Below are positions 11,452 through 19,656 of a DNA stretch of 64,000 nucleotides, piece by piece; within the stretch, counting starts at the first letter, position 1, and each line of letters begins with the position of its first letter. Under the pieces are notes generated by a model, which saw only the letters and a program-made list of their open reading frames with translations, was not told where the DNA came from and did not search any database. A program made the position numbers and the translations under genes. The stretch is from an uncultured Elusimicrobia bacterium (GTDB lineage: Bacteria; Elusimicrobiota; Elusimicrobia; Elusimicrobiales; Elusimicrobiaceae): the NCBI GenBank assembly GCA_947306425.1, contig CAMZGO010000008.1, positions 105-64,104 of the forward strand, written 5' to 3'.

Positions 11452-11486
11452 TCCCCCTATGAGTAAAATTGTAGGGGGATTTTTTA
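11452..11486. terminator. bidirectional rho-independent terminator
   Basis: TCCCCCTA ... TAGGGGGA hairpin followed by TTTTTTA, between the convergent aas-like and pilin-like genes. Confidence 0.7.
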
Positions 11487-11999
11487 TTCCACTATACAAC
11501 CTTTATGTGTAGCACCGGGAAGGTTGCTTGTAATTTCACTTACATTACACACTTTTTTACAGATTTTTTCTTTAACATTTATAGGTAAACCTTGTACTTC
11601 ATTTTGATAATAACAAAAGAATTTTTTAGCAGGTATTTTATTATTTACCGCTTGAAGAGCATACCCAAGACGAATATCGGTATTTAAATTCCATATTACT
11701 ATTTGTCTTTGTGAACCTATACAATTAAATTTTCCTTGAGAATAACCTGAAACATTAATATCCAAAAAATTATTTAGATTTGAACACGAAAATGATGCGC
11801 TTGGATAAATAGGATATTCCCCGTTAACCAAAGCATAACGCTCCAAAGCATCGGCAATACTTCTTAAATTACTCATATTTGCTTTTACTTTGGTGACATT
11901 TGTTAAATAATAATATTGAGGTAAGGCAATTGCGGCAAGCACACCTATAATCAAGACTACAACTAATAATTCTATTAAGGTAAAACCTTTATTTTTCAT
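11484..11999 (-). CDS. prepilin-type N-terminal cleavage/methylation domain protein (type IV pilin-like)
   Basis: N terminus MKNKGFTLIELLVVVLIIGVLAAIALPQY, followed by a Cys-containing C-terminal domain. Confidence 0.85.
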   Translation of the reverse strand: MKNKGFTLIELLVVVLIIGVLAAIALPQYYYLTNVTKVKANMSNLRSIADALERYALVNGEYPIYPSASFSCSNLNNFLDINVSGYSQGKFNCIGSQRQIVIWNLNTDIRLGYALQAVNNKIPAKKFFCYYQNEVQGLPINVKEKICKKVCNVSEITSNLPGATHKGCIVE

Positions 12000-12048
12000 A
12001 AAAACTCCGTTTATTACTTGGTAAGGCTCAAAAAATTTATATAGAAAA

Positions 12049-12224
12049 ACGGCTGCTATATTAGAGCCCCAACCAAGAAACCCAAATATAACAGCCGTAA
12101 TTTCCCGCTTTAATAAACGGGAAATATTCGGCAGAACAAGATATACGGTCTTGCTCCGCCTAAACGGCTATTTTTTGGATTGGTCGGGTCTTTGGTTGCC
12201 CAAAGATTCTCCGTCTAAATACGG
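12049..12224 (-). ncRNA. candidate structured RNA (sRNA, 3' UTR or pilin leader), minus strand
   Basis: Five hairpins: 12049-12061/12086-12098, 12101-12107/12118-12124, 12130-12140/12150-12160, 12189-12195/12200-12206, 12211-12214/12221-12224. Mismatches in the first and third become G-U pairs only on the minus strand. The first helix is followed by T5 on the minus strand. Confidence 0.3.
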
Positions 12225-16644: not shown

Positions 16645-18192
16645 ATGAAAACAATAAAAACGGATGTTCTAGTCATCGGCAGCGGGATTGCCGGCTCGCT
16701 TTATGCCTATATATTGGGTGCTGCAGGCTTAAAATGCACCTTAATTTCCGCCGATAAATTAGCTGATTGCGACAGTTCCCTTGCACAAGGCGGTATAATT
16801 TATGAAGATAAACCAGATTTTAAATTACTCCTAAAAGATATACAGCGTGCCGGCTGCGGAGTGTGTAATGAAGAAGCGGTTTTGACCGCCTGCCGCGAGG
16901 GTTTTAAAGTAATTGAAAAATATTTTATCAAAGAATTTAAAACCGATTTTAACAAATCTGACAACGGCAAATTTTTACTAACAAAAGAAGCAGCGCACTC
17001 AAAAAGGCGTATACTTTACAGTAAAGACGCCACGGGGAAAGCTTTAATTGACTCAATGCAAAGTGCTCTGAAAAAGTTAAAAAATGTAAAAATTATTGAG
17101 CAGGCATCGGCAGTTGACCTTTTAACTTTATCACACAACTCCCAAAACCCGCAAGATTTATATAAACCTTTAACCTGCTTTGGCGCATATATTTTAGACA
17201 ATAAAACCAAAAATGTTTTTGCGGTTGTCGCTAGAAAAACAATACTCGCCACAGGCGGGCTCGGCCAAATTTTTAAATATACGACAAATATTGATACACT
17301 TTACGGCAGCGGTATCGCGATGGCTTACCGTATCGGCGCACGCGTTATCAATATGGAATATACACAGTTCCATCCGACGGTTTTTGCTTTAGGTAACAGA
17401 AATGCTTTGATTTCCGAAGCCGTCCGCGGCGAGGGTGCTGTTCTAATAAATAAATTCGGCAAACCTTTTATGCAAAATTATCATCCCTTAAAGGACCTTG
17501 CCCCGCGTGATATCGTCGCGCGCGCTATTGAACACGAACGCCTGAAAACAAAAAGTGATTTTGTGTATTTATCACTTGCCTCCATGAAACCGGACTTTAT
17601 TAAAAACCGCTTTCCAAATATTTATAAAACCTGTTTAAATAACGGCATTGACATAACCAAACAACCTATACCGGTAATGCCGGCAATGCATTATTTTTGC
17701 GGCGGAATTTTTACCGATTTGGAAGGGCGCACAAATATTTTGAATCTTAATGCTATCGGGGAATGTGCCTGTACAGGCTTTCACGGGGCTAATCGTTTAG
17801 CAAGCACTTCTTTGCTTGAAGCGGTTGCTTTTGCCGCACTTTGTGCGCAGGCGGACATTAAAGAAATTAAAACAAAAAAATTTTATTTACCTGCCCCGAA
17901 AGTTTGGCGTATGGCGGAAAAAGAGCCGGATGTAAATTTAATTTTACAGGATATTTCCGTCATAAAAAATACTATGTGGAACTATGTCGGTTTAATTAGG
18001 AGTAAGGACCGCTTAACCCGTGCTGAAAAGATTTTAAGACATTTAAAAAATGAAATTGACGTATTTTACAAAGGTTGTAAACTTACCCCCGAACTTCTGC
18101 ATCTGCGTGACGGCGCACAAACCGCATTACTTGTAACTTACGGTGCCTTGAAAAATAAACATAGTTTAGGCACGCATTATAGGGAGGATTAA
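16645..18192 (+). CDS. nadB: L-aspartate oxidase
   Basis: DVLVIGSGIAG FAD motif and fumarate reductase/succinate dehydrogenase flavoprotein-like core. ATG 16645 follows an AGGAG RBS. The listed start at 16597 overlaps rsmA. Confidence 0.9.
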   Translation: MKTIKTDVLVIGSGIAGSLYAYILGAAGLKCTLISADKLADCDSSLAQGGIIYEDKPDFKLLLKDIQRAGCGVCNEEAVLTACREGFKVIEKYFIKEFKTDFNKSDNGKFLLTKEAAHSKRRILYSKDATGKALIDSMQSALKKLKNVKIIEQASAVDLLTLSHNSQNPQDLYKPLTCFGAYILDNKTKNVFAVVARKTILATGGLGQIFKYTTNIDTLYGSGIAMAYRIGARVINMEYTQFHPTVFALGNRNALISEAVRGEGAVLINKFGKPFMQNYHPLKDLAPRDIVARAIEHERLKTKSDFVYLSLASMKPDFIKNRFPNIYKTCLNNGIDITKQPIPVMPAMHYFCGGIFTDLEGRTNILNLNAIGECACTGFHGANRLASTSLLEAVAFAALCAQADIKEIKTKKFYLPAPKVWRMAEKEPDVNLILQDISVIKNTMWNYVGLIRSKDRLTRAEKILRHLKNEIDVFYKGCKLTPELLHLRDGAQTALLVTYGALKNKHSLGTHYRED

Positions 18193-18193
18193 A

Positions 18194-18673
18194 ATGAAAT
18201 TATCTGAACACGAAAAATTTTTGGAGATGGCTATTAAATTAGCGGAAAAAAGCGCAAAAAGCGGTAAAGGCGGACCTTTCGGCGCGGTGATAGTTAAAGA
18301 CGGTAAAGTCATTGCAAAAGCACATAATACCGTTACGACTTCAACGGACCCAACCGCACACGCGGAAGTTAATGCCATACGCAAAGCATGCAAAAAATTA
18401 AAAAATTTCCAACTTGACGGATGCACGATTTATGCAAGTGCCGAGCCTTGCCCCATGTGCTTAGGTGCAATTTATTGGGCGCGCCCCAAAGCCATTTTTT
18501 ATGCTGCTGAAAAGAAAATTGCCGCGCGCGCCGGCTTTGACGACAGTTTTATTTACAAAGAAATTGAACGCCCGCAAGACAAACGTAAAATTAAGACGCA
18601 TCATTTACCCTTAAAAGATGCGCCTTTACCGTTCAAAATTTGGGCTAACAAACAAGACAAGGTGGAGTATTAG
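18194..18673 (+). CDS. guaD: guanine deaminase (CDA-fold, GuaD-type)
   Basis: GGPFGAVIVKDGKVIA...DPTAHAEVNAIR...PCPMCLGAIYWARPKAIFYAA...GFDDSFIYKEI is colinear with Bacillus GuaD as I remember it. Confidence 0.82.
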   Translation: MKLSEHEKFLEMAIKLAEKSAKSGKGGPFGAVIVKDGKVIAKAHNTVTTSTDPTAHAEVNAIRKACKKLKNFQLDGCTIYASAEPCPMCLGAIYWARPKAIFYAAEKKIAARAGFDDSFIYKEIERPQDKRKIKTHHLPLKDAPLPFKIWANKQDKVEY

Positions 18674-19137
18674 TAATAGTATTTACAATATTGATCTGTT
18701 ATACATGAACTGCTATGGTCGGTTTCTTTATGACATAAACGGTTCGCAAGATCGTTTGTATTTGTACTAAGAGCCGTACATATAAATGGTTTCCCGGTGT
18801 TAGACTTCATGTAAAAACACATTTGTGTATTAAAAATTTTTTTACAACATCTAAGGAGGCTAGAATCTATAATACTACATTCACTTTCACTAGGTAATTC
18901 CACATCAAGTACCTGAATATCATCATAGATACCGGCATAAGTATTGTGGGTTATATAATACCTTTGTACAGACTGTTGGAAAGTTTTTGTAAGTGTTTTT
19001 AATTCAACAAACTTTGCTTTACCGACTGCCATTTGATATTGCGGCAGGGCAATCCCGGCAAGTATACCGATAATTAAAACTACTACAAGCAACTCAATTA
19101 AAGTAAAACCTTTGTCTGCGTTTTTTATTTCTTTCAT
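18670..19137 (-). CDS. prepilin-type N-terminal cleavage/methylation domain protein (type IV pilin-like)
   Basis: KGFTLIELLVVVLIIGILAGIALPQY N terminus. AGGAGAG RBS. Confidence 0.85.
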   Translation of the reverse strand: MKEIKNADKGFTLIELLVVVLIIGILAGIALPQYQMAVGKAKFVELKTLTKTFQQSVQRYYITHNTYAGIYDDIQVLDVELPSESECSIIDSSLLRCCKKIFNTQMCFYMKSNTGKPFICTALSTNTNDLANRLCHKETDHSSSCITDQYCKYYY

Positions 19138-19189
19138 AAACTCTCCTAATTCACTTTATAAAGCGTTTAAAAATATTATTACCCCAAAA

Positions 19190-19220
19190 ATTATACAAAA
19201 AAAAAAAAAATGTCTGTCAA
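19190..19220 (-). promoter_or_regulatory. consensus sigma70 promoter of the pilin-like gene with a T14 tract in a 19-nt spacer
   Basis: On the minus strand: TTGACA (19220-19215), then GACA + T14 + G, then TATAAT (19195-19190). A 46-nt leader and an AGGAGAG RBS follow. Confidence 0.6.
19197..19210. repeat. A14/T14 homopolymer
   Basis: Counted directly. It is the longest homopolymer I saw in the window. Confidence 0.95.
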
Positions 19221-19291
19221 GACCTTTTTTAAAACTCCAACGATAATTCATAAAGATATTCATCTGTGGCACAAAAAGTTAAACATTTCCC

Positions 19292-19320
19292 TTGACATTT
19301 AACATAATAACTTGTATTCT
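19292..19320 (+). promoter_or_regulatory. putative sigma70 promoter of trxA
   Basis: TTGACA (19292-19297), 17-nt spacer, TATTCT (19315-19320). Confidence 0.45.
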
Positions 19321-19338: not shown

Positions 19339-19656
19339 ATGGAAATACATTTAACTGATGCAAACTTTGACCAAGAAGTTTTACAGTACAAAGGTGTCGT
19401 CTTGGTTGACTTTTGGGCACCTTGGTGCGGGCCATGCAGAATGCTTGGGCCCGTCATTGAAGAAATTGCCAAAGAATATGAAGGCAAAGCGAAAATCTGT
19501 AAAATAAATACAGATGAAGCACCGGAACAAAGCGGGAAATTTCAAATTTCCTCTATTCCTACGGTAATTATCTTCAAAAACGGCACGCCGGAAATTACTT
19601 TAAACGGCCTCCAGAGCAAGGAAGAAATAAAAAAACAACTTGACTCTCTGCTCTAA
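19339..19656 (+). CDS. trxA: thioredoxin
   Basis: WCGPC active site. 105 aa counted from the ATG preceded by an AAGGGGA RBS. Confidence 0.92.
   Translation: MEIHLTDANFDQEVLQYKGVVLVDFWAPWCGPCRMLGPVIEEIAKEYEGKAKICKINTDEAPEQSGKFQISSIPTVIIFKNGTPEITLNGLQSKEEIKKQLDSLL

Follow-up and report, generated by a model that had tools for sequence, protein, structure and literature searches.

T-runs as promoter spacers in a prepilin gene family of Elusimicrobia, with a possible role in tuning promoter strength

Results

A T-run between two perfect promoter boxes

The window, by which we mean the whole 64,000-nucleotide stretch of DNA that was analysed, is C8:105-64104 of genome G000 (1.44 Mb, 36% G+C, 21 contigs), from an uncultured Elusimicrobia bacterium. 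On its minus strand, a prepilin-type gene is preceded by a predicted leader and by a predicted sigma70-type promoter whose spacer is mainly a run of T; trxA is encoded divergently on the plus strand. The features of this region are:

18670..19137, minus strand: prepilin-type gene, 155 aa, ATG at 19137, N terminus MKEIKNADKGFTLIELLVVVLIIGILAGIALPQY (PF07963 N_methyl, E 1.8e-9)
19138..19189, minus strand: predicted 5' leader, holding the near-palindrome CGCTTTATAAAGTG (19152-19165) and the RBS AGGAGAG (19141-19147)
19190..19196, minus strand: G (19196) and the -10 box TATAAT (19190-19195), a 6/6 consensus match
19197..19210, minus strand: pure T14 homopolymer, the main part of the spacer, one of 57 genome runs of 12-19 nt
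19211..19214, minus strand: GACA, the 4-nt non-T part of the spacer, which marks the 'gap-4' long class
19215..19220, minus strand: -35 box TTGACA, a 6/6 consensus match
18674..19290, no strand assigned: whole pilin cassette (gene, leader, promoter and ~70 nt upstream), present or absent between strains
19292..19320, plus strand: trxA promoter candidate (TTGACA, 17 nt, TATTCT), independent of the T-run
19339-19656, plus strand: trxA, the divergent gene (PF00085)

The promoter had been flagged in a sequence-only reading whose anatomy (the two boxes, the T14 run, the 19-nt spacer, the RBS and the ATG) is correct in every detail when the sequence is read again. The spacer is GACA + T14 + G, that is 19 nt (4+14+1), set between two perfect hexamers; 12/12 bases agree with the canonical sigma70 boxes TTGACA/TATAAT. 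A length of 19 nt falls outside the canonical 17 +/- 1, and a promoter scan that admits spacings of 16-18 nt omits the site. A perfect TTGACA-N19-TATAAT occurs once in the window, compared to 0.04 expected from shuffles. The corresponding shuffle null for T12 alone (3.2 expected) is uninformative because the TT dinucleotides that make up the run survive shuffling; for runs, the genome's own run-length histogram supplies an informative null.

Three other kinds of element were ruled out at the site. A sigma54 promoter would carry GG-N10-GC, which is absent; an intrinsic terminator with the T-run as its U-tract would have an adjacent GC hairpin, also absent; and the GACA-T14-G spacer contains no dyad operator as in MerR-type promoters with 19-20 bp spacers. 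No known RNA family (Rfam) matched between window positions 17500 and 20500.

The promoter belongs to a genome-wide family

The run-length histogram of G000 is bimodal. A/T runs fall away from 1320 at 7 nt to 193 at 8 nt, 7 at 9 nt, 2 at 10 nt and 0 at 11 nt, and then reappear in a second peak with 14 runs of 14 nt, 34 of 15 nt, 5 of 16 nt and 2 of 19 nt, plus one T13 and one run interrupted by a contig end; homopolymers of 9-12 nt are nearly missing outside the promoter cassette. Cassette sites were located by the run alone (>=11 nt, n=57), and these 57 T/A runs compare to ~0.7 runs of at least 13 nt expected from base composition.

All 57 runs share one architecture: TTGAC[A/T], 0-4 nt, the run, 1-2 nt, and TA[C/A/T]AAT. 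At 47 of the run-located sites, TTGAC[AT] precedes the T-run by 0-4 nt, and TA[ACT]AAT lies 1-3 nt downstream of every run that has downstream flank. The gap sequences differ among paralogues (ACG, GCCG, TGCG, GACA and others), in contrast to the conserved hexamers and run. A prepilin gene of 146-187 aa follows 52/57 runs at a distance of 22-62 nt; 2/57 precede paralogous signal-peptide proteins (452 and 468 aa), and 3/57 reach contig ends. Counted from the genes, 55 of the ~100 prepilin-type ORFs in G000 have a run of at least 9 T within 260 nt upstream. Thus the flagged promoter, which had been presented as a candidate switch of one gene, turns out to be one of ~57 copies of a single cassette.

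The 15 nt flanking the promoter on either side are only 45-46% identical among copies, and impure runs are rare (2 interrupted and 3 collapsed, compared to 57 pure). Given that the runs have stayed pure while their flanks diverged, it is the homopolymeric nature of the spacer itself that is maintained, and not its length alone.

The mosaic and decayed copies in G000 are:

C12:39958
C1:69414
C1:176797
C16:10253
C4:80914
C6:13341

The copy at C12:39958 is mosaic, joining a long-class -35 module to a leader and N terminus of short-class type. At C1:69414 an interrupted run gives a spacer of exactly 17 nt, and the run at C6:13341 reads T10-G-T6. In three copies the run has collapsed (to T6-T8), and one of these copies stands ahead of a truncated gene. 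The two proteins outside the pilin family, secreted or membrane proteins of unknown function, have the same T15-C-TACAAT module (C1:254192-254206 and C4:94458-94472) behind a degenerate -35 box (TTGCGG). For seven T-runs a contig end is no more than 200 nt away, indicating that the cassettes break assembly.

Two spacing classes flank the canonical optimum

Spacing was counted at the 47 G000 sites that have both TTGACN and TA.AAT. The spacer is 14 nt at 1 site, 15 nt at 9, 16 nt at 7, 19 nt at 15, 20 nt at 12, 21 nt at 2 and 23 nt at 1; none of these strong-box copies has a spacer of 17-18 nt. The only two T-run cases at 17 nt in the genome each have a -35 box matching at 3/6 positions. In contrast, run-free TTGAC[AT]/TA[ACT]AAT pairs in the same genome peak at 17 nt, with 18 pairs vs 7 at 16 and 7 at 18, so the host RNA polymerase looks conventional. 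The flagged spacer was said to be off-optimum, and indeed it is: ordinary G000 promoters peak at 17 nt, and the cassette of a sister genus is kept at 16 nt.

Run length compensates in part for gap length. Gap-3 copies carry T15-16 and gap-4 copies T14-15 (Mann-Whitney p = 0.008, with paralogues that are not independent), and the gap-0 class has the shortest runs of all. Because the compensation is partial and the gap-0 runs are shortest, the spacers settle at two discrete set-points, 15-16 and 19-20 nt. Each class is in turn divided roughly equally between two neighbouring lengths (15/16 and 19/20).

The flagged 19-nt spacer is the mode of the long class (15/47). It had been read as probably low or OFF; as a transient OFF state this does not hold, since 19 nt is the modal long-class state and is conserved across species (15/47 in G000, 37/75 in the sister species G019). 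Nor does the family behave as though it stood one step from ON through the loss of 1-2 T, with no strong-box copy at 17-18 nt.

A search within the long class for a hidden, better-spaced -35/-10 pair gave at most 3/6 matches, except for TTGCGT in one subset. This 'TTGACTTGCG' subset (C4:113458, C1:199151, C4:30002 and others) has a second, overlapping TTG box (TTGAC-TTGCG), which would lie 15-16 nt from the -10 box. A few G000 promoters have TTGCG or TTTGCG alone beside the run.

Run length among paralogues and in one pair of strains

Among the paralogues of G000, runs range from T13 to T19. Between strains, the run at C9:43-55 is T13 in G000 and T15 in the ENA metagenome contig L103, with identical flanks; L103 matches C9:1-1617 at 99.4% identity over 1619 nt, and in G000 this run is 42 nt away from a contig end. 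The strain-level difference comes from this one informative strain pair. These data point to slippage of the runs, by 1-2 nt, among paralogues and in near-identical strains, and the description of the run as slippage-prone finds support at the C9 locus. At the same time, run length is equal in 4/5 near-identical paralogue pairs (at least 88/100 flank bases), and MutS and MutL are both intact in G000.

We searched for a second strain carrying the flagged locus by exact-protein look-ups and a scan of metagenome contigs and found none: neither the exact flagged pilin protein nor the exact neighbouring deaminase protein matched anything on record, and a locus-specific pattern gave 0 matches in the metagenome contigs. 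Exact-protein look-ups for further strain pairs (rsmI, an MBL-fold protein and three pilins) gave no matches, and a contig found via an ECF-sigma protein ends 250 nt before its T-run. A generic class-B pattern gave only 3 T-run matches in the metagenome contigs, all of them in other species.

The whole cassette is itself variable. In ENA contigs L101 and L102 the encoded TrxA is identical and nucleotide identity over trxA-polA is 97.4%, but in both, 55 bp replace the 617 bp of window 18674-19290, so that the whole pilin cassette is missing; from 19291 onward the trxA promoter is unchanged. Since these contigs lack the cassette yet keep the trxA promoter, the cassette can be dispensed with and the run does not belong to that promoter, which agrees with the placement of the tract outside it in the sequence-only reading: the 97%-identical strain without the cassette keeps the trxA promoter from 19291. 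Genomes G003 and G015 have no pilin at the deaminase-trxA site. Across species of the genus, this intergenic site holds different pilin cassettes or none.

Total spacing is conserved among relatives

G000 belongs to the Elusimicrobiaceae, and its closest named matches are Elusimicrobium simillimum and MAGs of uncultured gut Elusimicrobium. The cassette is present in two Elusimicrobiaceae genera, with sites of T13 or longer in 13/33 own-genus and 15/72 sister-genus genomes. It was not found in the eight further genera searched or in two further families of the order, and several well-assembled congeners are without it. Independent assemblies of at least 20 other species, as well as metagenome contigs, contain it.

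In G019, the 75 copies have spacers of 18 nt (5), 19 nt (37), 20 nt (28) and 21 nt (5), with none at 17 nt. The sister genus keeps its cassette at 16 nt with T12 (65/84 copies in G131, 11/16 in G081, 12/14 in G070 and 7/11 in G117). Each species has a typical run length: T12 accounts for 63/84 runs in G131, and T15 for 34/57 in G000. Different combinations arrive at the same sum; G085 reaches 16 nt as 3+T11+2 and G081 as 2+T12+2. The same is seen at the syntenic deaminase-pilin-trxA site, where G000 has 4+14+1 = 19, G019 3+14+2 = 19 and G023 5+13+2 = 20. From these compensating spacer changes, total spacing is conserved across relatives and run length is species-typical. G100 has two spacing classes, 16 and 19 nt, with the same T12. 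G000 and G019 have longer runs (T14-16) and a dominant 19-20 nt class, next to one of 15-16 nt.

Taken together, the comparisons within and between genomes show that the homopolymeric nature of the spacer is under selection, with two conserved set-points (~16 and ~19-20 nt) and occasional slippage.

Pilin genes, leaders and assembly machinery

The genome encodes ~100 prepilin-type ORFs in 1.44 Mb, and the flagged 155-aa protein has the N-terminal motif of type IV pilins and pseudopilins (PF07963, E 1.8e-9). A prepilin peptidase, 4 T2SSE-family ATPases and 2 secretins are present in G000, so the pilin-like products have machinery for processing and assembly.

Two features recur in the predicted leaders of the paralogues. 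In most of them, a (G)CTTTATAAAG(C) or GTATAAA motif lies ~10 nt upstream of the RBS. Many leaders also open with a hairpin whose stem sequence varies among paralogues while pairing is kept around an A-rich loop (for example TATACGG/CCGTATA, GGCG/CGCC and ATAGC/GCTGT). Judged from sequence, the hairpin and motif may serve as an mRNA-stabilising 5' hairpin or as an operator.

A separate conserved hairpin of ~52 nt, ACGGCTGT...(loop)...CAGCCG followed by T5-8, has at least 26 copies in G000, one of which lies in the window:

12045-12098 (G000 C8:12149-12202), minus strand: one copy of the ~52-nt hairpin

Nine copies stand directly upstream of prepilin genes that have no T-run, including the window pilin at 11484-11999. 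Possible identities for the element are a terminator cassette, an attenuator and a small repeat travelling with a second pilin class.

Discussion

How the T-run may act

Our preferred reading, in which we place even confidence, is that the T14 run is a selected, slippage-prone homopolymer spacer that would tune the strength of a sigma70-type promoter. As part of that evenly balanced reading, the T-run cassette would drive about half of the ~100 prepilin-type genes through its predicted promoters, and each cassette would act as a mutational dial, setting promoter strength for the pilin paralogue that it precedes. The flagged 19-nt copy would probably be a weak, detuned promoter, like most of the long class, and its output would go up if the run were shortened and down if it were lengthened. 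What we describe is a family-wide design and not a one-off OFF switch. Several observations count against a dial: the narrow length distribution, the equal runs in 4/5 of the closest paralogue pairs, the intact MutS/MutL and the single strain difference. A T-tract just upstream of the -10 box also need not serve variation, as M. agalactiae vpma shows (PMC2268961). Stabilising selection on a fixed length would account for the two set-points just as well as a dial does, and the dial gives no reason for the existence of the 19-20 nt class.

A fixed structural role is a serious rival, one that we consider possible but clearly less probable than the dial. Here the pure T-run would be selected for A-tract rigidity, overtwist, a narrow groove or a contact surface; its length would be held constant, and slippage would be rare noise without an adaptive role. 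A-tract DNA has about 10.0 bp per turn. By this geometry, a 16-nt T-run spacer should rotate nearly as a 17-nt mixed spacer does, which fits the 16-nt set-point; the 19-20 nt class, in contrast, should be roughly a third of a turn out of phase, and a fixed spacer so badly aligned leaves that class unaccounted for. The narrow, species-typical lengths (T15 in 34/57 runs of G000, T12 in 63/84 of G131), the compensating changes that conserve total spacing, the equal runs of the most similar paralogue pairs, the intact mismatch repair and the precedent of the vpma T-tract, which lies upstream of the -10 box and plays no part in variation (PMC2268961), all speak for it. The T13 vs T15 difference between 99.4%-identical strains and the roughly half-and-half split of each class between adjacent lengths argue the other way.

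The sequence-only reading had proposed a binary contingency switch, OFF at 19 nt and ON at 17-18 nt after the loss of 1-2 T, as in vlp. Ordinary G000 promoters do prefer 17 nt, the product is one of a multigene family of surface proteins, the run is both long and pure, and spacer indels turn vlp, maa2 and vmm ON or OFF (PMC2268961). But 0/47 strong-box copies in G000 stand at 17-18 nt, and in G019 0/75 stand at 17 nt and 5/75 at 18 nt. The long class is 2-3 steps from 17 nt and 3-4 from the 16-nt set-point of the sister genus, which is far for a one-step switch. In addition, compensating changes keep the 19-20 nt state across species, so this state is selected and is not a drifted OFF state. 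With no copy at 17-18 nt, a distance of 2-4 steps from any optimum and a length conserved across species, the binary model is unlikely as stated. A further reading, which we regard as quite improbable, takes the 16-nt aligned and the 19-20-nt out-of-phase promoters as two regulatory classes of pilin promoter, controlled by a run-binding factor or by supercoiling, with slippage superimposed. The 19-20-nt class would then be active only upon untwisting or shortening of the A-tract spacer, the untwisting coming from a dedicated T-run-binding factor or from a change in DNA supercoiling, and the species-typical run length would co-evolve with the T-run-binding factor. As for the T14 being a sequencing or assembly error, or a fortuitous run, the contig ends near seven of the runs could be read that way, and assembled homopolymer lengths can err by one, so the exact length of the flagged run is to be taken as +/- 1. 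Yet concordant sites number 57 where 0.7 are expected, and the cassette recurs in metagenome contigs and in the independently assembled genomes of at least 20 further species. The existence of the run is thereby settled, and the probability left to such an artefact is negligible.

Significance

To our knowledge, next to nothing is known of how genes are regulated or hosts engaged in the phylum Elusimicrobia, and in the literature searched we found no published description of T-run pilin promoters or of homopolymers in this group. If the runs tune or switch expression, about half of a ~100-gene pilin repertoire, in a genome of 1.44 Mb, would take part in mutation-driven surface variation; the logic would match that of the Mycoplasma vlp and Neisseria systems on a larger scale. 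If instead the reading with two regulatory classes is true, the promoters would encode, physically, a combinatorial programme for the expression of 50-85 pilins in each cell. With their strict purity, their species-typical length and their two off-canonical set-points, the runs offer a natural experiment on the way in which promoter strength depends on spacer length and on the geometry of A-tracts. In genome annotation, the cassette reliably marks where pilin genes start, and it often causes contigs to break.

Comparison with known systems

In H. influenzae hifA/hifB, with (TA)n, and in Neisseria porA/opc, with poly-G/C, the number of spacer repeats sets the promoter strength of pilus or outer-membrane genes. 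As in the family described here, the tract sits in the promoter spacer of surface-structure genes. Those systems, unlike the present one, are single loci whose observed states gather at the optimum or beside it; here, an entire family stands at two off-optimum set-points.

The surface-protein genes vlp of M. hyorhinis, maa2 of M. arthritidis and vmm of M. mycoides carry a homopolymer or repeat in the -35/-10 spacer (PMC2268961). With the vlp type our promoters have in common a run between the promoter boxes, a surface family in which each paralogue has its own tract (here 52 prepilin genes), and a tract position at which length change by slippage would alter the spacing (PMC2268961). They differ in that the products here are type IV pilin-like proteins of diderm gut Elusimicrobia, at 50-85 copies per genome, and in that mismatch repair is present, lengths are tightly held and no copy stands at the canonical ON spacing.

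In H. pylori sabA, a T13-T18 run tunes RNA polymerase binding in a graded, multiphasic manner via local DNA geometry (Aberg et al. 2014, PMC4081817). The likeness is a T-run of similar length near the core promoter. The sabA tract, in contrast, is upstream of and adjacent to the -35 box, where it aligns UP-like elements, whereas the run described here lies downstream of the -35 box and before the -10 box (PMC4081817). In M. agalactiae vpma, Xer1 inversion does the switching and the T-tract has no role in variation (PMC2268961); like the flagged promoter, the vpma promoter is that of a surface protein and carries a homopolymeric T-tract immediately upstream of its -10 box.
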